Position numbers and translations under genes: made by a program
The notes under the pieces: model-generated
The model's input: only the letters and a program-made list of their open reading frames with translations
The model's database searches: none
What the model was told of the DNA's origin: nothing
Assembly: GCA_035389185.1 (NCBI GenBank)
Contig: DAOORK010000001.1
Coordinates: 129,006-193,005 of the forward strand
Source: Candidatus Woesebacteria bacterium
Lineage (GTDB): Bacteria > Patescibacteriota > Microgenomatia > UBA1400 > MFAQ01
DNA: 64,000 nt
Reading direction: 5' to 3'
Shown: piece after piece, positions 4,076 to 53,369 of the stretch
How positions within the stretch are numbered: the first letter of the stretch is position 1
Layout: every line of letters begins with the position of its first letter

Positions 4076-4080
4076 CTTTT

Positions 4081-4269
4081 GATCCGGTAGCTCAGCTGGA
4101 TAACAGCTTACTCGTTCTCCTATCAATAATAACTATTATTGATATGTCGGCCTGCGTTTCCTGTTATATCTGGCGCCGATAATTACTCTGTCATTATCGT
4201 CTGGATATAGCGCTCGCTCTATCTGTCTACCTGCTAAATGGTTAGTACTTAGGTTAAAATATAGATGTT
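4081..4269 (+). repeat. pseudo-tRNA-Arg unit 1: exact 22-nt copy of the tRNA-Arg 5' end, then an insert of about 105 nt and a non-tRNA tail
   Basis: 4081-4102 gatccggtagctcagctggata is identical to 4270-4291; the insert carries hairpins tcaataata-ac-tattattga and gataat-N9-attatc and is homologous to the inserts in units 2 and 3. Confidence 0.6.
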
Positions 4270-4343
4270 GATCCGGTAGCTCAGCTGGATAGAGCGACTG
4301 CCTTCTAAGCAGTAGGTCGACGGTCCGAGTCCGTCCCGGGTCA
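4270..4343 (+). tRNA. tRNA-Arg (anticodon TCT)
   Basis: Acceptor GATCCGG/CCGGGTC (one G-T pair), D-arm GCTC-AGCTGGATA-GAGC, anticodon stem ACTGC/GCAGT loop CTTCTAA, T-arm GACGG-TCCGAGT-CCGTC, discriminator A. Confidence 0.8.
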
Positions 4344-4532
4344 CAATAGTAATTGTTCTGCTTTGCAGAATCAGCTGGATAACAGCTTGCTCCCCTTCTC
4401 TTCAATAATATTATTATTGAAGTATCCAGGCTCCGCTTCCTGTTATTTCCGCTCATAACTTCGTTATGATGCTTGGAAATAGCGCGACTGCCTTCTAAGC
4501 AGTAGGTCGACTACGAGCCCTCCCGGGTCACA
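4344..4532 (+). repeat. pseudo-tRNA-Arg unit 2: degenerate 5' half, about 95-nt insert at the D-loop, then an intact anticodon arm, a degenerate T-arm and the acceptor 3' end
   Basis: 4481-4532 agcgcgactgccttctaagcagtaggtcgactacgagccctcccgggtcaca matches the tRNA-Arg 3' portion except in the T-arm; the insert starts ACAGCTTGCTCC and has hairpins ttcaataatattattattgaa and cataac-ttcg-ttatga. Confidence 0.6.
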
Positions 4533-4719
4533 AAACCAGAGATAATAAATATTTACATAATTGTCTTGCAGTAAGAGCTTGCTCCCTACGACGCACATAA
4601 CATGCGTTATGTTGCTGTCTTCAGTCCGCTTCCTCTTATATTCGCTCGTAGTTCACTCTCTTAGTTCGTTTAACTACGATGCTTGAATATAGGTCGACTA
4701 CGAGCCCTCCCGGGTCACA
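4533..4719 (+). repeat. pseudo-tRNA-Arg unit 3: related insert followed by the T-arm/acceptor 3' fragment only
   Basis: 4691-4719 aggtcgactacgagccctcccgggtcaca is identical to the end of unit 2; the insert shares AGCTTGCTCC, CGCTTCCT, GATGCTTGAATAT blocks and a cataac-atgc-gttatg hairpin (covaries with unit 2). Confidence 0.55.
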
Positions 4720-4720
4720 A

Positions 4721-4746
4721 AGAAAAACCCTCCTTGCGGAGGGTTT
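4721..4746. terminator. bidirectional terminator (A-run, ccctcc-ttgc-ggaggg, T-run)
   Basis: Hairpin flanked by A-run and T-run, between the tRNA array and the convergent nadE 3' end. Confidence 0.55.
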
Positions 4747-11052: not shown

Positions 11053-11133
11053 AAAATGGATTGATTGAATAGGTCAAAGTACGTATATATATTACTACAA
11101 GATACCACTTTTGTCAAGTTATAGGGTATTTTG

Positions 11134-11281
11134 TTGCCGAGCTAGGACTCTGTCACCGGTTGTCGCCTAAGGCGACCCCGTCGACCCCGGCGTTTACCGC
11201 ACGTTACGTGCTGCATTCCGCCATTCTCGTCCTAGTATAGTATCAAAAAATATTCTCCCATAAAGGGAGAATATTGTTTTG
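11134..11281 (-). repeat. tRNA-linked structured element (copy at tRNA-Gln) ending in a 17-nt duplicate of the tRNA-Gln 3' end
   Basis: 11134-11150 ttgccgagctaggactc is identical to 11282-11298 (tRNA-Gln 3' end, minus strand); the GC-rich interior contains GCCGGGGTCGAC, the tcgcc-tta-ggcga hairpin and GGTGACA, homologous to the element at 13710-13860. Confidence 0.6.
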
Positions 11282-11353
11282 TTGCCGAGCTAGGACTCGA
11301 ACCTAGGATATCCTCCTCCAAAGGGAGGCGTCCTACCACTAGACGACTCGGCA
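11282..11353 (-). tRNA. tRNA-Gln (anticodon TTG)
   Basis: Read from the reverse complement: U1-A72 acceptor TGCCGAG/CTCGGCA, anticodon stem CCTCC/GGAGG loop CTTTGGA, T-arm CCTAG-GTTCGAGT-CCTAG, discriminator A. Confidence 0.75.
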
Positions 11354-11381: not shown

Positions 11382-12230
11382 TTATTTCATTCTTGCCTGA
11401 TCTCTGGCTAGAGCAAAAATCATGGTATTCAGGTCTGAGTTTATTGTAGGAATAACTTGATCTAGATAGCGATCTTTTTGGAGATAGATTTCGATAGCCT
11501 CTTTTATCCCTGGTCGAAATTTTTTAAAATCAAAATCGTTGATATTTGTGAGCTTGAGATTTTTTAGCTTGTAGCTTGAAAATTGAGGATATTTTTGAGG
11601 TAGTTCAAGATGATATACCGAAACCTTAATATCTGTGAGATTGATGTTTACGAAGGGAAGAATGTGTTCCGGAATGATGCCCCAGGGAAACTTTTGGGAA
11701 ACAATTGATTTTGAAAAAACCTCGCTTTGGAGAATTCGGGCAAGAGAGTCGCGAATTGGTTCACCCACCTTTGTGTGCCCCATGGGAAGAGTGAGGTCTC
11801 CCCTTTTCCCCATTATGGAGCTTGAACCTAGGCTTTGATCACTACCGACAAGTATTGATTGAGGATCGTTTGGGGGTGTAATGATAAGAATAGCTCCTTG
11901 ACGTCTGGTTAGTCCCAGGCGAGTGAAATGAAGAATTCGATGGAGTGTATTTGTAGATACTTGTAGAGAGTGCGGTGCGTGTTGATGATAAAGTTTCTCG
12001 AGGGGAATTTTGTAGTTGGCCAGAAGGCTTATGAGATAAAGAGACTCGGAAAATTTGGAGTTTGGCCCAGCCGATTTTATGACATGGTATTTATTTAATA
12101 GCCGATCAAATCCGGAAAGCGATATTGGAAGACAGTAATGATGTTTTTGAAAAACTTTGTTGATTGATCCGAAACGGAGATACTCTTTGATAAGAAATTT
12201 TTCAAATGTAGTTTCTTTTGAGGTTGCCAT
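11382..12230 (-). CDS. hypothetical protein with a degenerate Nudix-like box
   Basis: LPMGHTKVGEPIRDSLARILQSE resembles the Nudix box GX5EX7REUXEEXGU, but REU is replaced by RIL and EE by SE. Confidence 0.45.
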   Translation of the reverse strand: MATSKETTFEKFLIKEYLRFGSINKVFQKHHYCLPISLSGFDRLLNKYHVIKSAGPNSKFSESLYLISLLANYKIPLEKLYHQHAPHSLQVSTNTLHRILHFTRLGLTRRQGAILIITPPNDPQSILVGSDQSLGSSSIMGKRGDLTLPMGHTKVGEPIRDSLARILQSEVFSKSIVSQKFPWGIIPEHILPFVNINLTDIKVSVYHLELPQKYPQFSSYKLKNLKLTNINDFDFKKFRPGIKEAIEIYLQKDRYLDQVIPTINSDLNTMIFALARDQARMK

Positions 12231-13628: not shown

Positions 13629-13709
13629 TGGGCAGGTGGCGAAATGGTAGACGCGCAGCGTTCAGGACGCTGTGAGGCAACTCATGAGGGTTCGAGTCCC
13701 TCCCCGCCC
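13629..13709 (+). tRNA. tRNA-Leu (anticodon CAG), class II
   Basis: Acceptor GGGCAGG/CCCGCCC (one A-C mismatch), D-loop AAATGGTAGA, anticodon stem CAGCG/CGCTG loop TTCAGGA, long variable arm TGAG-GCAA-CTCA, T-arm GAGGG-TTCGAGT-CCCTC. Confidence 0.7.
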
Positions 13710-13860
13710 ACATAAAAACATCAATATGTACTCTTGCAGTAAATATTGTGTTTTTGATTTTGTGGAGGACTCGAATGGCGCAGGCATGACTGATGCCGAG
13801 CCGGGGTCGACAGAATCGCCAGCAGGCGAGAACTGGTGACCGAGTCCCTCCCCGCCCACA
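13710..13860 (+). repeat. tRNA-linked structured element (copy at tRNA-Leu-CAG) ending in a 20-nt duplicate of the tRNA-Leu 3' end
   Basis: 13841-13860 cgagtccctccccgcccaca is identical to 13692-13711; interior AGGACTCGAATGGCG, hairpin ggcat-gact-gatgcc, GCCGGGGTCGAC, hairpin tcgcc-agca-ggcga, CTGGTGAC. Confidence 0.6.
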
Positions 13861-45880: not shown

Positions 45881-45883
45881 TTT

Positions 45884-45957: not shown

Positions 45958-46140
45958 CTAAGTTCAGTTTGTTCCGAGGCGATCCGCAAGGGTCGCTTCG
46001 TTGTATTGATGTATCCGACTAAAATTTTCCTAAATTGATTGAAAATCGCGTTCGAGTCCCGTAAGGGTTGTTATTGGATTGTGGATAATTCTTCAAAAAA
46101 CGTCTATAAATAATAGTAGAGAGCAATCTTTACTCAACAA

Positions 46141-46311
46141 CTATTTGTGTTTTGTTTTATCCACTAGCACAAATTGTTGCCTTTTACCCTGGTTGTTTGG
46201 CGGTGTTTTATCACCTCGACTGAGAGTGTACTCAGTCGTACCACCCGAAGGTCGGTACTGTCCAGAAACTGGAGCAAGTTTGCCTGTATAGGCAATTACT
46301 TTTTTCTGCAT
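46141..46311 (-). CDS. hypothetical small protein (56 aa)
   Basis: ATG preceded by an AGGAGG RBS, internal to the 81-aa track ORF; Gly/Thr-rich. Confidence 0.4.
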   Translation of the reverse strand: MQKKVIAYTGKLAPVSGQYRPSGGTTEYTLSRGDKTPPNNQGKRQQFVLVDKTKHK

Positions 46312-46454
46312 TTCCTTTTTCCTCCTTTCTCGCCGGGCTACGGCGTGCTGGTTGCACCGCTCCTTCGAGAAATTTAGCTGTACCAATAAAGACGCTCTCT
46401 ACTGCGAATAATCTATCACCAAAAATCTAACTTAGCAACTTTTTACTTAGAGTG

Positions 46455-47780
46455 CTAATTATTGATTAAAATATACCTGTTTTTGAGAACGAACCTTGTG
46501 TTAATAAGTGAGAGAATTTCCAATCTTTCTTCTGAAGTTCCTCCCCTGAGAATATGGATCAGGTAGTTCTTCGCCATTGCTTTGAATTCTAGTTTTCCCG
46601 GAATCATTCCATTTTCCCCATCGAACTTACCCAACATATATTCTTGGTGGAGTACATCGGTTTTTAACCTGTGATATCTTTCGATGTCCTCTTGGATTTT
46701 CCGAGAGATGCCAGCCTGATTGTAAGATATTTTGTCGATATGACCAATTATTTGTTTAACGAGATCATCTTCCTCAACATATGGTTCGTTACATTCGTAA
46801 TCTAAATATCTCCGACAGTGGTAGTAGATATGCTTTTTAAACCCTCCTCCCCTTAATTTTCTCAGTTTCTCTTCTGCGGTTACCGAACTTCCGCAAGATC
46901 CACACTTTATTAATGTTTTGAAAGCAAAGATATTTTTGTTCCATGTCTTTGGTACTGTTTCCAGTTGTTTTTGGACTTTCTCGAATAACTCTTTGGTAAT
47001 AAGTGGTTTGTGTTTGCCCTTGTACCAGATGCCACTTCCAGATGGAAATTCAAACTCACCATAATAGAATGGATTTTTGAGAATTGCGTGAACTTTACTC
47101 GTGGGACACAACACACCTTGTCTGGTTTCAAAACCAATTCTATCTAGCCATCTTTTTACCGACCTACCACTGTGACCTTGGACACCAACTCTTTCAAACA
47201 TTTGTTTTACAAATGGGGCCCTAATTGGATCGAGGATAACCAGCTCATCAGTACGGCCATCTCCCTTTTGGTTGAGATATCCCATCGGAGCCATACTTGG
47301 TTTCCAACCTAGACTACATTTGTTTCTTAATCCCCTTTCGACATTTACTCCCTTGTTATCGTTTTCCAATTTGGCTTGGGAGCAGAGGATCATCAGAAGA
47401 AATTTTTCGTTGGGACTATTGGTGAAGGATTGGCTGTAAGTTTGGATGCGGAGTAGTTTCTTCTGGTCCATGAGGTCCACAAGTGTTCCCAGATCACCCG
47501 CATTACGGCTTAGACGATCAGGTGCCCATGTGAGTATTCCGTTGAACTTTCCGGAGCGAATTCCTTTTATTAATTCCACAAATACAGGTCTTGCTCCAGA
47601 TTCTTTGGCTGAATGACTTTCTATTTTTATTTCTTTTACTTTTATGTTTTCTCTCTTAGCCAATACTTTCATTTCGTCAATTTGAGAATCAATGGACATA
47701 ATTTGTCTTTCGTCACTTTCAGAAGACTTGCGGGCGTAGAGACAGTAACTTATTTCCTGTGTTTTTGTGGATGTATCCAT
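46455..47780 (-). CDS. large serine recombinase (integrase)
   Basis: N-terminal resolvase catalytic domain (YARKSS, SIDSQ Ser), recombinase domain, Cys zinc ribbon (CGSCGS...C), coiled-coil C-terminus; 441 aa. Confidence 0.85.
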   Translation of the reverse strand: MDTSTKTQEISYCLYARKSSESDERQIMSIDSQIDEMKVLAKRENIKVKEIKIESHSAKESGARPVFVELIKGIRSGKFNGILTWAPDRLSRNAGDLGTLVDLMDQKKLLRIQTYSQSFTNSPNEKFLLMILCSQAKLENDNKGVNVERGLRNKCSLGWKPSMAPMGYLNQKGDGRTDELVILDPIRAPFVKQMFERVGVQGHSGRSVKRWLDRIGFETRQGVLCPTSKVHAILKNPFYYGEFEFPSGSGIWYKGKHKPLITKELFEKVQKQLETVPKTWNKNIFAFKTLIKCGSCGSSVTAEEKLRKLRGGGFKKHIYYHCRRYLDYECNEPYVEEDDLVKQIIGHIDKISYNQAGISRKIQEDIERYHRLKTDVLHQEYMLGKFDGENGMIPGKLEFKAMAKNYLIHILRGGTSEERLEILSLINTRFVLKNRYILINN

Positions 47781-47813
47781 TACTTATCAATGTACCGCAA
47801 GTTTTCTGTAAGT

Positions 47814-49244
47814 CTAGTCCAGGTATCTAACTCTTGGCTCTCCTTTGCTTGCCTCAGCTATGAAATAGTAAAAACCGAGAGTGAAAGCATCAACTAGATC
47901 ATCGTGTGGCTCTACCCCAAAATGAATAATCTGTCCGATTAGCTCATCGGCTCCATGGACTGGAAAAAGCACTTTACCGTTTTGAATCCAACTACTGGTA
48001 AGTGAGAGTCGACTTCTTTTGTCATTTCCACCGATTGTTATTCCTTTTACGTTTACGCTCTCGGTTTCCAACATTTGGATTAAACTTTTTTGATAAGCAA
48101 CATCTTCTACTAAAACTAAGGGTGAATATTGGAGAAGGGATTGTCGGAGATCATTAATTATTTTGATTGTTTCCGGCATTCCCATTCTTTTATTTACCAT
48201 TGTGGGCATTACCTTCACTTGGATATCTTTGTGGTAACCATACATCAGGAATATTACGATTGCGGTTTTGTCTGCCCTTTGGTTTTCGGAAATAGCAGGA
48301 TCGACAGATATGACGGCACACCTCAGATTTTTTGTATCGATTGGAAGTGTGGAGTCATATCGAGCAATCCACTCCGGTAAAACGACTTGATCACCATCGG
48401 GGATTATTTTAAGCATGAACTCCCGAAGAAAATCGGAATCACTGGCAGTTTTCTTTCTCAATCTTTCAATTGAACGTTTGTCCGTAAACTTCCCCGGCCA
48501 AAGGATTTTGCTTCCCCTCATCAAGGGATACTGTTTATAGATTCCGTCAATTCTTTTCTTGGATATGGCTTTCTTCATCCTCATCATTAGAGAGTCTTCG
48601 TGGACGAGATTACCGATGAAAACAATTTTAGTGTTTTGATCTCCTGAAGGAATAAGCTCCGAGTTTACAAATTGCCAAAGTTTATCTCTTCCTTCTTTCG
48701 TCTTAGCCGACTGCATATCCTCGATATCATCGCAGATGATGAGATCTGGACGGTATTGGCGATGGCGAATACCTCTCATACTTTGTGAAACGGAAACTAC
48801 GGTAATTCTGGCATTGTATCGATCCAAAACTAAACTCTCACTATTCCACTCTCCCTTTTTGGAAGCGAAACTTCCAAAGTCTGTATAAAGTAGTTTGTTT
48901 AACTCCAATTCCGCTTTTATATTTGATAAAGTTTGCTGAGCCTGTTGTTGGGTTTGGCAGACGATCAAAACATATTTCTTTTGTGGCGCACCTACGATTG
49001 ACCAGATCGGGTATGAGAGTGTCATTATGGTCGATTTGGCTGACCCACGGAAGGCAACAATAGCTAGTGTTTTAGTATCGACATTCTCCGTTAAACGAAA
49101 TATTTCCTGTTGGAACTGAGCGGTTTCGTATTTAACAAAAGAAGAGAAATATGTATGGAAAAACCAATAATGTGAACCAAAGGTTACTGATTGCCTTACC
49201 GCTGGATTACCGATGATATTTTCAAAAAGTTTCTGCTTTTCCAT
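47814..49244 (-). CDS. phage terminase large subunit
   Basis: ATPase Walker A-like AFRGSAKST, Walker B LIICDDIED, C-terminal RNase H-like nuclease Asp residues (VISVDPA, LVEDVAYQ, HDDLVDAF). Confidence 0.75.
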   Translation of the reverse strand: MEKQKLFENIIGNPAVRQSVTFGSHYWFFHTYFSSFVKYETAQFQQEIFRLTENVDTKTLAIVAFRGSAKSTIMTLSYPIWSIVGAPQKKYVLIVCQTQQQAQQTLSNIKAELELNKLLYTDFGSFASKKGEWNSESLVLDRYNARITVVSVSQSMRGIRHRQYRPDLIICDDIEDMQSAKTKEGRDKLWQFVNSELIPSGDQNTKIVFIGNLVHEDSLMMRMKKAISKKRIDGIYKQYPLMRGSKILWPGKFTDKRSIERLRKKTASDSDFLREFMLKIIPDGDQVVLPEWIARYDSTLPIDTKNLRCAVISVDPAISENQRADKTAIVIFLMYGYHKDIQVKVMPTMVNKRMGMPETIKIINDLRQSLLQYSPLVLVEDVAYQKSLIQMLETESVNVKGITIGGNDKRSRLSLTSSWIQNGKVLFPVHGADELIGQIIHFGVEPHDDLVDAFTLGFYYFIAEASKGEPRVRYLD

Positions 49245-49656
49245 TTTCTTTGATTGGTTTTTCTTTTATGACTCCTGAAAGCAGAAGTGCTTCTCTTACA
49301 ATTGCCTCTTCATCAGGTGTGAGATCATCACGCAGGTGATTCTGGTCGGAAGAGATTTCCAACTTGGGAATGTATGACTGGTGATGATTTTTGAGCCAGA
49401 AGATGATGGCAGTCATATTCTTGTCTCTTATCGATGAAAGCAACTGCGACTCGGCCATGTCATTAATCATCTCAATGCCTTCTTTGAGAGCTTTATCGCT
49501 TTCCTCTTTGAACTTTTTATCCTCCGACCGCCAACGATAGTAGGTGGCACGGCTAACCCCTGATTTTTCGCAAACGACTTGGACAATTGGTGTCTTTTGC
49601 AACAACTCGATGAGTTTGCTTTTATTTTCTTCTTGACGTTTTTCGATGGTGTTCAT
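49222..49656 (-). CDS. putative terminase small subunit / HTH DNA-binding protein
   Basis: HTH VSRATYYRWR; lies immediately upstream of and overlapping the terminase large subunit. Confidence 0.5.
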   Translation of the reverse strand: MNTIEKRQEENKSKLIELLQKTPIVQVVCEKSGVSRATYYRWRSEDKKFKEESDKALKEGIEMINDMAESQLLSSIRDKNMTAIIFWLKNHHQSYIPKLEISSDQNHLRDDLTPDEEAIVREALLLSGVIKEKPIKENGKAETF

Positions 49657-50978
49657 GTGATTTGTTTAGCTTTTAATCCAGTGAGTCTCTCCCATCTTTT
49701 TTTGATAACCTCAGCGTAGACTGGAGACTTCTCCATGAGATAGCAACGACGTTTCATTTTGGTAGCCGCAATCAAGGTTGACCCGCTGCCACCAAATGGT
49801 TCGACAATCAGGTTACCTCGCTTGGTAAGAACTTTGATGTATGGAATTAATATCTCGGTTGGTTTGGTGCCGAAGATCACACCTTGGCCGGAATGTTTTT
49901 CATCTGAGGCATTAAACTCAATGAAATCTGTTGGTTGTGTTTTCTTTCCTTTCTCATACCCTTCCCATTGAGGTTTGCCAGATATGGCGTAGAGTGCGGT
50001 TTCATATTCTTGCTGGAGTCCGTCTTGTTCTTCCTCGTTGTTGTACTGAATATCCACTTCTTTTGACGCTCCAACCATGGCAATGTCATGTTTGCTGAAG
50101 AACTTATATTTAGCAGAGAAACCTTGATGTCGATTGGGTAAATGCCAAATTATCATATTTTTTACTTTCCAATGTTTTTCCATTTCCCCCCAAATGGTTC
50201 GTAGGTTCTTCCAGTTTTCGTAAACAATGATGGAGAAATGTTCCTTTTGAATATTGGCGATGCTGTTCATCCATTTTTCAGTAAAGTCTAACGGAAGACT
50301 TTCGGTTTCCAAATATCTTCGATCTCTTTTAGCTCCGAATCCTGTTACCGCTTTTCCGTGGCGTTTAGCTTTTAGATAGTCGAGAATGTATGGAGGATCG
50401 GTAAAACACATATCTGCTTTCTCCCCAGCCATCAACTTGAGCCATTCTTCATCGTTGGTGGAATCTCCACACATCAATCTGCTTCCGTCGAGGTCATAAA
50501 TATCACCTTTCTTTATATTTATTTTGGTGATATCCATCTTCAATAGTTCCTTCTGGAGATCAAACTGTTCCGGTGTGTCTTCAATCTCAAAGATTTGATC
50601 TAACTCTTCACTGGAGAAACCAACACTATCCAAAAAAGCAGAATCAAAATCGGCTAACAAACCCCAATCCCATTCACCTGTGTTTTTGTTTAGTCTGAGA
50701 TTTAACTCTTTTTCTTTCTCGATGTCGGGAATATTTACATAGACCACAGGAATTGTTTCGAAGCCCATTTCTTTGGCGACTTCTAACCTGAAATGACCAC
50801 CGATGACAATGTTCTTCCTTTCTGGAGCTTCGTTGACGATGATTGGATCGACCAATCCAAATTTGGTAATACTTTCTTTCAACTGGTCAGCTGATTGTTT
50901 ATCGTGCTTCCTGGGGTTGTATGCCGCAGGATTAAGTTCCTTTATGAAAACTTGGGTTATTTGTATTTGTTTACTCAT
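49653..50978 (-). CDS. ParB-like nuclease domain fused to a DNA methyltransferase (beta-class N4/N6)
   Basis: N-terminal ParB/Srx block (GGHFRLEVAKEMG), motif IV DPPY placed before motif I FGGSGST, so beta-class permutation. Confidence 0.85.
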   Translation of the reverse strand: MSKQIQITQVFIKELNPAAYNPRKHDKQSADQLKESITKFGLVDPIIVNEAPERKNIVIGGHFRLEVAKEMGFETIPVVYVNIPDIEKEKELNLRLNKNTGEWDWGLLADFDSAFLDSVGFSSEELDQIFEIEDTPEQFDLQKELLKMDITKINIKKGDIYDLDGSRLMCGDSTNDEEWLKLMAGEKADMCFTDPPYILDYLKAKRHGKAVTGFGAKRDRRYLETESLPLDFTEKWMNSIANIQKEHFSIIVYENWKNLRTIWGEMEKHWKVKNMIIWHLPNRHQGFSAKYKFFSKHDIAMVGASKEVDIQYNNEEEQDGLQQEYETALYAISGKPQWEGYEKGKKTQPTDFIEFNASDEKHSGQGVIFGTKPTEILIPYIKVLTKRGNLIVEPFGGSGSTLIAATKMKRRCYLMEKSPVYAEVIKKRWERLTGLKAKQIT

Positions 50979-51000
50979 GTTTTTTGAGTAATTGATAATA

Positions 51001-51062
51001 AAAAATGCCTACCTCACAAAAACCTGCTTCAACGCGAAGCGATAAGTTTCTGTGAGGTAGGC
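51001..51062 (-). terminator. large-loop hairpin, probable terminator of the minus-strand operon
   Basis: Perfect 12-bp inverted repeat gcctacctcaca / tgtgaggtaggc around a 32-nt loop, with an A5 run (T-run on the minus strand). Confidence 0.4.
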
Positions 51063-51150
51063 ACGACCGAGGCGAGGCCTCTTCGATAGCTTTGGAGCCA
51101 TCTCCTATCAGGTATTCCTGAAATGAGTGATTCCTACACCACTAATTTAA

Positions 51151-51486
51151 TTATACTGATTTTTTCTGTATTTTTTTCAGGCGCTCTTTTACGTCTTCTC
51201 CAAGAAGAAAGGGTATGCCATTTGGCATAATTATCCGGATGGTCATTCCTTGCTTATTGGCTTTTTCTATTGCTTGAGTAATTTCTGGACCAAAAGGAAT
51301 TGTGAACGTCATTTTCCCTGTCGATTCATCGAGCTTAACATTATCTCTAGTCATAAATGCACGTCCCTGTTGTCCAGTAGATATGGATTTGGAGATAGCT
51401 CTGCCAAATGAAACAGGTTTCCTTACCTCTTGGGTGTGTAGAGAAATATCGGTAAATTGGATATCAAAATATTTTTCATCGGTCAT
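51151..51486 (-). CDS. hypothetical protein
   Basis: 111-aa ORF, last gene of the nuclease-receiver operon. Confidence 0.45.
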   Translation of the reverse strand: MTDEKYFDIQFTDISLHTQEVRKPVSFGRAISKSISTGQQGRAFMTRDNVKLDESTGKMTFTIPFGPEITQAIEKANKQGMTIRIIMPNGIPFLLGEDVKERLKKIQKKSV

Positions 51487-51498
51487 AACTTAATTATA

Positions 51499-51876
51499 TT
51501 AATTTTGACCGTACTTTTTCCCGATTTGGTCTTTGAGTTCTGCCGCGAACTTTTCCAAATCTTGATACTCCTTGTTTATCACAACTTTTACGCCTATTTT
51601 TAGAAGTTCCTCGTTGTATGGTGGGACAGAAGAAATTCCAATTATTTTATCTACTCCAAATTTTTCAAAATCTAATGCATGGAAAGATCCGCCCATGGCA
51701 CAATCACGGTCAAGAAGAATTATGTCGAATTTTAGTTCACTAGGGTTAAGTATCTTTTCGACTTGCTCATAAGTGGAAAAAACTACTGGAGCAAAATCTA
51801 TCTTTGTTTCGAATAATACTCTAAAAATTATCGAGAGCGTCTCCAAATCATCTTCGAGGATAAGCATTGACTTCAT
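51499..51876 (-). CDS. response-regulator receiver-like (CheY-like) domain protein, stand-alone
   Basis: MLILEDD ... ILLDRD pattern (phospho-acceptor Asp position) with alternating beta/alpha periodicity; 125 aa. Confidence 0.4.
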   Translation of the reverse strand: MKSMLILEDDLETLSIIFRVLFETKIDFAPVVFSTYEQVEKILNPSELKFDIILLDRDCAMGGSFHALDFEKFGVDKIIGISSVPPYNEELLKIGVKVVINKEYQDLEKFAAELKDQIGKKYGQN

Positions 51877-53369
51877 TGTCCTTGTTTATCTAAATAGTCT
51901 TTGATAACCATGGTAGCTACACAGTCGTCTTCGTTATACAGAAGAATTCTGTCCATATCGGCCTTGTCTTTGGTTTCAAGATAGTGGTTAAACCATTCAA
52001 TAGACATGGCGCCGGAGGGTGTCTTGTCTCGCCAGCTAAAGCCTAGATACTGAGCAATTTCTTTTAGAGAGTAGCTCATCAAGGGCCAATCGGTATGTTT
52101 GGAAACTACAGAATATAGATCTATTGCTTTTTCTTCACTAAAGAACCAAGCAAGTTCTTCCTCAGTAACCACATCCGGATACTTTTCTCTCATGCGGCGA
52201 TAGGTTGTCTTCTCGTGGTGGGAATAATAGTAAGTAGTAAAGTCGTCTTTGGGTAGTGATCGAATATATTGCCAAAAATTACTCCAGGCTTCTCTTTCTG
52301 ATTCGTCGGTTTTGTCTAATGCAGTAAAGTCTATAAACCTCTCCCCTTTTGGAGAGCGCTCGTATACACCATGAAGATAGACAAAGGCTTGGGTGGGATC
52401 GTCTTCAATATCAAAATATAATTCGTAGCTTGTTTTGGGAAAGTTCATTTTTTCGTAAATGACGGGACTTTTTGTAACTTCCATGATTTTTGATCTTTGA
52501 ACAAACTTTGTGAGTTTTGCCTCTCCCAAACCAAATAAATACTTTTTGTCTTTTTTCTTTTTGGCCAATAGTGTGTCGATGTCCAGGTCAATCAAATCTA
52601 TGTAGCTTTCAATGTCCAAATCTCTTTCTAGGATATCTCTGTTGGCCCTACCGAGACAGAAGATCATACTTGGGTCATGACTCTCTTTTATCCATTTTTT
52701 GCAGCTTGCGTACCATGGGCAAAGTTTGCATTTGCCGGAATATGCTGGTTTGTTTTTTATTTCGTTATTTAAGAGCTTCCCTGCCATTACTTTTGTTTCT
52801 TGGTAAAAGTCCCAGTAAGTTTGAGGTGTTTTTGTGCCAATAGGTTTATCCAAGTCGTATGTAGTTCTCTCGGAGTTAATATCGATAATGGCACCAGAAT
52901 GTTTTTTAGCAAAACCGAGATTGATAAGCACTTCGCAGTAGAGAGCGAGTTGAACCGCATAATGTATTTTGTATTTTCCCTCATTATCATTTTCCTCATC
53001 TACTCCCTCAACTCCCATACCGCTTTTGATGTCGACTGGTAGGTAGGTACCGTCTGGCTGTATTTCTAAGAGGTCCGGAATGCCAAAGAGCTCGCTGTGG
53101 CGAATAGCTCCTTGGTAAATGAGTGGCATTCCTGCATTCATGGCTTCTAGAGTGGCTTTTTCTCTTTCTTTCTCCCCTACTTCTTTGAGATCCAGAATCT
53201 TTCCCAGCTTGCCCACTATATTTTCTTCGTGACTGACTCCTTTTTCCCAAAGCATTTCTACAAAGGGATTTGTATCTGGATTCTTTTCGGCCTTTGGGCC
53301 ATACACATCACGCCAAATACGATGTTCGCACTGGAGGTAGTTATATAGTTTAGATGGTGTGATTTTCAT
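51873..53369 (-). CDS. RecB-family nuclease, TM0106-like (Cas4-like PD-(D/E)xK with Fe-S cysteines, plus a C-terminal RNase H-like domain)
   Basis: N-terminal Cys (YLQCEH), IPDLLEI...VDIK, QLALYCEV (QxxxY), CKLCPWYASC; C-terminal FDIEDD ... YYSHHEKT ... YNEDDC; ATGA overlap with the receiver gene. Confidence 0.55.
   Translation of the reverse strand: MKITPSKLYNYLQCEHRIWRDVYGPKAEKNPDTNPFVEMLWEKGVSHEENIVGKLGKILDLKEVGEKEREKATLEAMNAGMPLIYQGAIRHSELFGIPDLLEIQPDGTYLPVDIKSGMGVEGVDEENDNEGKYKIHYAVQLALYCEVLINLGFAKKHSGAIIDINSERTTYDLDKPIGTKTPQTYWDFYQETKVMAGKLLNNEIKNKPAYSGKCKLCPWYASCKKWIKESHDPSMIFCLGRANRDILERDLDIESYIDLIDLDIDTLLAKKKKDKKYLFGLGEAKLTKFVQRSKIMEVTKSPVIYEKMNFPKTSYELYFDIEDDPTQAFVYLHGVYERSPKGERFIDFTALDKTDESEREAWSNFWQYIRSLPKDDFTTYYYSHHEKTTYRRMREKYPDVVTEEELAWFFSEEKAIDLYSVVSKHTDWPLMSYSLKEIAQYLGFSWRDKTPSGAMSIEWFNHYLETKDKADMDRILLYNEDDCVATMVIKDYLDKQGQ

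Follow-up and report, generated by a model that had tools for sequence, protein, structure and literature searches.

The DNA downstream of the tRNA-Gln(UUG) gene in the 64-kb stretch analyzed here (the window) holds a member of a structurally conserved family of elements, whose position and strand are strictly tied to tRNA and tmRNA genes, whose repeat of the tRNA 3′ end has its left edge between T-loop positions 55 and 56, and which also forms tandem arrays. Orthologous sites differ in their filling, and tRNA and tmRNA genes gain and lose this conserved, folded and non-coding unit at their 3′ ends. Our best reading, to which we give about an even chance, is a small non-coding cassette that is mobilized in trans and inserts at T-loop 55/56 while the tRNA is left intact. 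The family is apparently an undescribed, non-coding, folded element: full-text literature searches did not find a description of it, and in searches against Rfam 15 only tRNAs passed the gathering thresholds, with the core unmatched at E<=5/E<=10 (15 kb of the window; a canonical copy).

Patescibacteria are widely held to represent a large share of bacterial diversity and have tiny genomes. To our knowledge, few non-coding RNAs or mobile elements have been characterized in them. The presence of a highly conserved fold with covariation, located behind up to most tRNA genes of a locus and behind tmRNA genes, points to either an unknown route of DNA insertion at the universally conserved T-arm or unknown tRNA biology in this group. 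The cassettes also create tRNA 3′ fragments, which can confuse tRNA annotation as well as the prediction of att sites and genomic islands, and the motif looks useful as a marker for CPR contigs. If the strand complementary to the T-arm (P1 strand) guides insertion, this would be a compact, retargetable insertion system.

The cassette behind tRNA-Gln

The intact host gene, tRNA-Gln(UUG), is located on the minus strand at 11281-11353 (ARAGORN; Rfam tRNA model, 65 bits). Its positions 57-73 plus the trailer CAAAA (11277-11298, minus strand) recur at 11129-11150 as an exact direct repeat of 22 nt (repeat search, 100% identity, spacing 148; TTTTGTTGCCGAGCTAGGACTC on the plus strand). The earlier note had described a 17-nt duplication of the tRNA-Gln 3′ end; this 17-mer is duplicated as described, while the full exact repeat extends to 22 nt, so that the unique interior between the copies amounts to 126 nt and not to 131 bp. 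According to our own arithmetic, which is not a shuffle, about 1e-6 exact repeats of 22 nt within 150 nt are expected per 64 kb. The repeat copy reads ...GGCAACAAAA, without CCA, and the ORF scan showed no ORF inside the 126-nt interior.

Read in the direction of the tRNA (all parts on the minus strand), the gene is followed by a linker (11241-11276) containing an 11-bp hairpin (11249-11275) and a T-run, which is terminator-like on both strands (terminator scan). A homologous linker hairpin is found at the same position in the tRNA-Gln cassettes of the loci L146 and L150/L151, and this common sequence suggests vertical descent. The linker is followed by the P1 5′ strand CUAGGAC (11229-11235), which is complementary to the T-loop/T-stem portion of the repeat copy in the MFE fold, and by the conserved core of 78 nt (11151-11228; fold z = -3.9; R2 56.8 bits; covariation). 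Within the core, J1/2 is GAGAAU, P2 is formed by 11219-11222 with 11189-11192 and encloses a hairpin, and GGGG follows. P3 pairs GUC (11183-11185) with GAC (11152-11154), P3a pairs CGG (11178-11180) with CCG (11157-11159), P3b is the hairpin 11162-11176, and the core ends 3′ with GGUGACA. In the downstream repeat copy (11129-11150), 11142-11148 serve as P1 3′ strand, and the remainder, which repeats the acceptor 3′ strand and the trailer, is single-stranded. The sequence motifs previously quoted for this interior were all recovered on the minus strand in the order given, and its GC richness is real as well (G+C of the core 63% vs 40.5% for the window).

The Gln copy is an old, diverged family member, with divergence in the P2 arm and a mutated C56. 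No convincing promoter was detected for it in the scan, and a strong terminator precedes it. Read by eye, TGATACTAT before the P1 strand resembles the TGnTAAAAT stretches that precede tRNA genes in these genomes; among the copies it shows no conservation.

Sister copies and an empty site in the window

A covariance model (R2) was built from metagenomic copies only, with no window sequence included. Used on the 64-kb window, it gave exactly three matches, behind tRNA-Leu (101.6 bits, E 4e-31), tRNA-Gln (56.8 bits, E 2.4e-16) and tRNA-Gly (18.3 bits, E 1.3e-3). The proposal that one and the same element sits at Gly, Gln and Leu tRNAs was thereby borne out by an independent model. The cassette after tRNA-Leu(CAG) (13630-13711) spans 13713-13860 on the plus strand, has a near-canonical core and a repeat of 20 nt (13693-13712 and 13841-13860). 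After tRNA-Gly(UCC) (265-338), a diverged cassette is found at 337-484, also on the plus strand, with a repeat of 19 nt (318-336 and 466-484); in its P2 arm it is almost the same as the tRNA-Gln cassette of L151. The T-loop of this tRNA-Gly reads UCCGACU, where position 55 is a C and not the universal U.

Although the sub-parts differ in length, the repeat spacing is 148 nt in all three window copies. A fixed 148-nt ruler was nevertheless rejected: the spacing in single cassettes elsewhere ranges from 97 to 166 nt, with 148 as the commonest value. An empty site is present at 45881-45883 (plus strand), where only 3 nt separate tRNA-Lys(UUU) from tRNA-Glu; in the close relative L021, a cassette occupies the same position.

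Edges and parts of the cassettes

Across the family, the repeat normally starts with C56, its left edge being constant at 55/56, and the right edge varies from +0 to +27 nt, most often falling exactly at A76 (21 nt); where it reaches into the trailer, the extension measures 5-27 nt. The resulting repeats measure 19-48 nt, the 48 nt being found in L006. A cassette consists of an optional linker, often with a terminator hairpin, a strand of 7-10 nt antisense to tRNA positions 56-63/65, a core of about 66 nt with invariant junction bases, and the copy of the host tRNA from C56 to the 3′ end. In L090, units of 97 nt are arranged in tandem, which sets the minimal unit at about 76 nt in addition to the 21-nt repeat. 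For the CCA-less tRNA genes of the window, the repeat reproduces gene plus trailer sequence, and it therefore derives from DNA or a primary transcript and not from mature tRNA.

More divergent cassette types were observed in the same arrays (L074 1500-1720 on the minus strand, L030 1249-1378, L033 6140-6303 and L026 2474-2600). One of these types has the core GAGAAUGCCGG...GGCGGGGUCGCGAG...GUGAC, and in a third type from L074 the tRNA copy is joined at about 58/59 instead of 55/56.

Fold and covariation

Each of the three window copies folds as a three-way junction (MFE). In P1, the strand just 5′ of the core pairs with the first 7-10 nt of the repeat copy, i.e. the 3′ part of the T-loop and the 3′ strand of the T-stem. 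Two hairpin arms, P2/P2a and P3/P3a/P3b, leave the junction, and the acceptor 3′ strand is left single-stranded. By this closing stem, the junction between core and C56 is placed at the branch point of the fold. The consensus reads P1 5′ strand, (C/A)GAAUGGCG, P2 hairpin, GAGCCGGGGUCGACGG, a variable hairpin (loop AGCA), AACCGGUGAC, directly followed by C56.

In an alignment of 66 copies fitted to the covariance model, 94% of the pair cells hold standard pairs and 23 of the 25 pairs show compensatory changes on both sides; none of 500 shuffles reached the observed value, and slid controls were paired to 25-41%. When 18 copies were analyzed independently by MAFFT/RNAalifold, this structure came out again, and compensation was seen at 15 of 25 pairs. 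Across copies, P1 covaries with host tRNA identity and comprises 7-10 bp counted from C56 in nearly all of them, compared with a mean background complementarity of 6.7 of 10 positions in the control. The bases just 3′ of the P1 strand (invariant AA, usually AAU) are likewise complementary to U54-U55 and G53 of the genuine tRNA; their counterpart in the Gly copy is GAC, which matches the unusual G53-U54-C55 of its tRNA (n=1, manual alignment). A strand test based on wobble pairs gave 23 G.U vs 18 A.C, and mismatches (54 G.A vs 4 C.U) lean weakly to the tRNA-sense strand.

Among the tRNA-Gln cassettes of the window, L146 and L151, the P2a and P3b sequences differ completely, with both hairpins kept. 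In the tail-less copies (L021, L085, L092 and the first copy of L146), the acceptor-strand tail is lost, and of the repeat only the 8-nt P1 strand is kept together with the core. This retention argues for selection on the fold after insertion and fits a host function at least as well as mobility. A comparison of the linker with the 5′ part of a degenerate tRNA revealed no similarity. No promoter of its own is conserved across the copies, and many copies have a terminator between tRNA and element.

Distribution of the family

A pattern scan of 185,579 species genomes yielded 30 loci, of which 18 were genuine: 16 labelled Patescibacteria, WWE3 or Saccharibacteria, and two on low-GC contigs binned as Pseudomonadales. 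The remaining 12 were discarded as chance matches (10 high-GC, none with a repeat). By adding a metagenome scan and covariance-model searches, a total of about 90 copies was reached, all of them in Patescibacteria or CPR-like contigs, on the tRNA strand and just 3′ of a tRNA or tmRNA gene. The contigs bear the labels WWE3, Saccharibacteria, Collierbacteria-like or 'Patescibacteria group'. The gap between gene and cassette is 10-62 nt, except where a further cassette or an IS lies in between.

Hosts are 20 tRNA species (Gly, two Gln, four Leu, two Lys, Asp, Glu, four Arg, four Ser and Tyr) and three tmRNA genes; in L030, four of five tRNAs have a cassette. With the core behind so many different genes, the earlier view that the element is not tied to one tRNA identity, and that an integrase specific for a single tRNA is insufficient to explain it, holds for the whole family. 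Pattern scans of 2.9 million viral contigs revealed no true copy; their single match, L152, fails the model.

The two cassette-bearing contigs binned as 'uncultured Pseudomonadales' (L008 and L021, 39-41% GC) are probably misbinned Patescibacteria. L021 is very probably a misbinned relative, as its tRNA-Lys is almost identical to the one in the window and the layout of tRNA-Lys, tRNA-Glu and recombinase is the same.

Gain, loss and rearrangement at orthologous sites

At the orthologous locus consisting of a gene for a 282-aa protein and then tRNA-Gln, a homologous cassette is present in the window, L146 and L151 and a truncated one in L150. The same locus is empty in L147 and L148/L149, where the tRNA is directly followed by unrelated DNA. 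The alternative that relatives would carry the 131 bp as a conserved tRNA-Gln trailer lacking a duplication was not encountered, as these relatives have either the cassette with its duplication (L146, L151) or nothing (L147, L148/L149). The tRNA-Lys(UUU)/tRNA-Glu site likewise holds a cassette in L021 vs 3 nt in the window. L026 contains a second, diverged tandem cassette that is absent from the same locus in L019; the cassette common to both is 97.7% identical over 176 nt, compared with 71.5% for the adjacent 2.5 kb. Behind tRNA-Ser(UGA), two cassette types occur in either order (L016 vs L074), and one linker-core combination is found both behind tRNA-Ser in L016 and behind tmRNA in L031.

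L150 and L151 (2483-3700) come from the same species and share the tRNA-Gln cassette. It is full in L151 and followed there by an IS110-family transposase gene; in L150 it is cut after GAGCCGGGTTC, with different DNA beyond.

Neighboring genes and candidate enzymes

The ORF at 11382-12230 next to tRNA-Gln had been taken for a degenerate Nudix-like gene. This did not hold: it is intact and encodes a conserved protein of 282 aa with 128 homologues and no Pfam match, Nudix or other, at E<=1. The product is a conserved hypothetical protein, whose homologues are named Collierbacteria by their sources.

No mobilizing gene was identified, and none is carried by any of the about 90 cassettes. The candidate enzymes seen in passing are large serine recombinases and a rolling-circle Rep protein, each associated with cassettes in very few cases. 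In L043 (368-5705), the core and an 18-nt tRNA end are located about 10 nt past the stop codon of the Rep gene (PF23343); a large serine recombinase is encoded 3.7 kb upstream on this contig, which has no tRNA. This locus may be an integrative rolling-circle element that carries or abuts a cassette; the adjacency, seen in one of about 90 copies, may also be coincidental. Large serine recombinases are also found near cassettes in L005 and L021, and the one in the window (46455-47780) lies beside tRNA-Lys/Glu.

Three loci were considered as autonomous versions of the element and rejected. In L054 (9890-11030, 1.3-kb spacing), the linker of a cassette behind tRNA-Arg(GCG) is interrupted by an unrelated IS of the IS256/Mutator family with 21-bp inverted ends; L005 has decayed and lies close to an island with a serine recombinase; L043 is a single case. 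L005 (1-90) and L006 (6240-6300, minus strand), both from one MAG, have a common sequence upstream of tRNA-Lys up to ...GCGCACCA and then diverge. In L005, the next 6.5 kb contain a serine recombinase, Nramp and two tRNAs and end at a decayed tRNA-Lys 3′ end, after which comes the cassette.

Comparison with known systems

Genomic islands, prophages and CIMEs that enter the T-loop by tyrosine integrases resemble the cassettes in several respects: they target tRNA and tmRNA genes in their 3′ portion and leave the gene intact, their direct repeats are copies of the tRNA 3′ segment beginning within the T-loop, and they accumulate in tandem and are lost by recombination between repeats. They differ in that the cassette has only 76-150 nt without integrase or genes, one family serves about 20 tRNA species plus tmRNA, and a covarying three-way junction is present whose closing stem includes the repeat. 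Direct repeats of the tRNA 3′ end, which characterize integrative elements, were found here too (22 nt for Gln, 19-48 nt elsewhere). An integrative element bearing its own integrase was rejected, because all but two copies with upstream flank have no integrase or cargo between the repeats and the family is not specific for one or a few tRNAs.

Integron attC sites and the folded attP of CTX phage are similar in a structure kept by covariation, plausibly a folded single strand that imitates a duplex target, and in arrays 3′ of a fixed entry. In contrast to attC, the cassettes lack R″/R′ core sites (GTTRRRY), an integron integrase and ORFs; in place of a 7-nt core, their repeat comprises 21 nt of tRNA, and the junction bases show high sequence conservation. 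The consensus end CCGGTGAC|CGA does not contain GTTRRRY, and no integron-type tyrosine integrase was found in the selected ORFs scanned, so that an integron cassette was rejected. Casposons and Cas1-mediated spacer integration in CRISPR arrays share with the cassettes an insertion at tRNA 3′ ends that duplicates a fixed target segment, and the order leader-repeat-insert-repeat-insert-repeat. Here, however, Cas1 and terminal inverted repeats are missing, the duplication of 19-48 nt has one variable edge, and the inserts are all homologous structured elements. Insertion by a casposon or Cas1 was rejected because the cassette has no ORF and no terminal inverted repeats and its duplication is variable vs a fixed 14-15 bp.

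MITEs and REP-type repeats are likewise small, non-coding, multicopy, intergenic and presumably mobilized in trans. The cassettes lack their terminal inverted repeats and short fixed duplication and show strict tRNA linkage and orientation as well as deep covariation across CPR. A MITE was rejected as the left end is a variable linker, the sole inverted repeat is P1, which involves the target copy, and the duplication is 19-48 nt long.

With group II introns, IS200/IS605 and the IS110 bridge RNA, the cassettes have in common an element strand complementary to target sequence that flanks the insertion point on either side; they differ in the uninterrupted tRNA gene, the absence of intron domains, TnpA/TnpB and a DEDD transposase in cis, and the lack of an Rfam match. 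Archaeal non-canonical tRNA introns and split tRNAs are comparable in an intervening sequence in the T-loop and a pairing of intron and exon that defines the junction, whereas the cassette has a complete tRNA upstream, a bacterial host and no evident bulge-helix-bulge. Three further RNA-based candidates were rejected. A tRNA intron (group I, group II or archaeal BHB) conflicts with the complete upstream tRNA-Gln and the lack of an intron family match. A guide RNA of the TnpB/IscB omega-RNA type has no adjacent ORF, and 7-10 nt of the would-be guide are sequestered in P1. For a retroelement primer-binding site, the copy in the CCA-less window genes would have to end in ...CCA and instead follows gene and trailer (GGCAACAAAA). 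The Rfam 15 families, including self-cleaving ribozymes and tmRNA, were discarded at the thresholds given above.

Explanations for the family

For a cassette mobilized in trans, the following course can be envisaged. A single strand (RNA or ssDNA) would fold into the three-way junction, and a factor encoded elsewhere would recognize the folded junction and catalyze insertion at T-loop 55/56, resulting in a complete tRNA upstream and a displaced or duplicated 56-76 segment downstream. One family could occupy about 20 tRNAs because the T-arm is universally conserved and the P1 strand is complementary to the target. The wide host range would also follow from the fact that 1-3 substitutions suffice to fit the P1 strand to another T-arm, and from the AA(U) 3′ of P1, by which complementarity is extended across the junction to U54-U55/G53. 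Against this reading, a simple fixed staggered cut would not give repeats that vary from 19 to 48 nt, and excised or circular forms of the cassette were not seen. As a more far-reaching and tentative proposal, the core could be a new functional fold that programs insertion into, or attack on, the T-loop matched by P1, acting as a putative ribozyme or as a handle for a recombinase or reverse transcriptase in a retargetable mobile element unique to CPR, or the copies could be CPR-wide RNAs mimicking tRNA 3′ ends in tRNA metabolism.

A host-functional small RNA, or a cis-acting RNA of tRNA operons, that spread by duplication is the main rival; it is rather unlikely in our estimate and stays a serious one because the tail-less copies argue for selection on P1 and core. 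As a candidate mimic of the T-arm and 3′ end it might act in tRNA maturation, quality control or protection, and the repeat would either belong to the functional RNA or be left over from its origin. The invariance of the junction bases and the compensatory changes across WWE3, Saccharibacteria and Collierbacteria-like lineages are in line with such a role, as are the P1 and core of the tail-less copies, the P2a/P3b hairpins of the Gln cassettes of the window, L146 and L151, kept despite unrelated sequences, the high tRNA occupancy of some loci (four of five in L030), and the AA(U) next to P1 that complements U54-U55/G53, with GAC in the single, manually aligned Gly copy. Against this role speaks the patchy occurrence at orthologous tRNA loci, with close relatives free of the cassette; tandem arrays, permuted orders and decayed copies resemble the turnover of selfish elements, and many copies stand behind a terminator with no conserved promoter. 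We regard it as quite improbable that the cassettes are scars (attR ends) of larger integrative elements, such as prophages, integrative rolling-circle plasmids or islands, that entered the T-loop by an integrase and whose bodies later disappeared; in that case the core would have lain close to one end of the element, for example as a single-strand origin or a folded attachment site. The T-loop is reportedly one sublocation of tRNA-gene integration, as described by Williams in 2002. Direct repeats of the tRNA 3′ segment are the hallmark of integration into tRNA and tmRNA genes. Fragments of tRNA genes commonly stem from the integration of such elements, and an island flanked by one complete and one partial tRNA copy as direct repeats has been shown (PMC9897764). 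The core and tRNA end directly after the Rep gene in L043, with its upstream serine recombinase, and the large serine recombinases near the cassettes of L005 and L021 and beside tRNA-Lys/Glu in the window point the same way. Against scars, about 75 copies have an upstream flank, and all but L043 and L005 (decayed tRNA end) show 3-240 nt between tRNA and core, or an unrelated IS (L054). Independent and precise loss of the bodies at 20 tRNAs is implausible, a duplex att site needs neither P1 complementarity nor covarying hairpins, and the viral contigs yielded no true copy. Also, the right-hand arms of attP and attB would be identical, which is atypical for serine recombinases.

The fixed 3′ junction together with the variable 5′ side of the duplication is reminiscent of target-primed insertion. 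It would suit a mobile element guided at the RNA level or as a single strand, in which P1 as guide pairs with the target T-arm across 55/56 and the core is a putative ribozyme or a handle for a reverse transcriptase or nuclease, with insertion resembling reverse splicing or primed by the target. The guide-like strand complementary to positions 56-63, and via AA(U) to 53-55 across the junction, and the location of the junction at the branch point of the fold agree with this idea. We consider it very unlikely, given that the core matches no ribozyme or intron family in Rfam 15 (E<=10), that no reverse transcriptase or nuclease gene is associated, and that the copy follows the gene including its trailer instead of the mature, CCA-ended tRNA. 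Chance resemblance or an ordinary conserved tRNA trailer can practically be dismissed: only the general conservation of the T-arm, which raises background complementarity (control mean 6.7/10), speaks for it, against the exact 22-nt repeat, the E value of 2.4e-16 from the independent model, empty sites in relatives and covariation above all controls.

Further sequences at tRNA genes of the window

Directly after tRNA-Lys(UUU)/tRNA-Glu(UUC), a prophage-like island is located at 45959-53369. It contains the large serine recombinase, terminase-like genes, a ParB-methylase and a protein with PD-(D/E)XK and RNase H fold, and a T-arm-like fragment (CGCGTTCGAGTCCCG) is found in it at 46047-46061. Between 4079 and 4721, pieces of tRNA-Arg(UCU) (4270-4344) are repeated at a spacing of 187-190 nt: the 5′ part 4079-4102 equals 4268-4291, the middle part 4289-4321 is similar to 4479-4511, and the 3′ part 4503-4534 equals 4690-4721. 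The DNA between these pieces belongs to a second, unrelated and AT-richer element family (ACAGCTT...GATGCTTGGAAATA) with no Rfam match, one copy of which is placed like a D-loop insertion of a partial tRNA-Arg.
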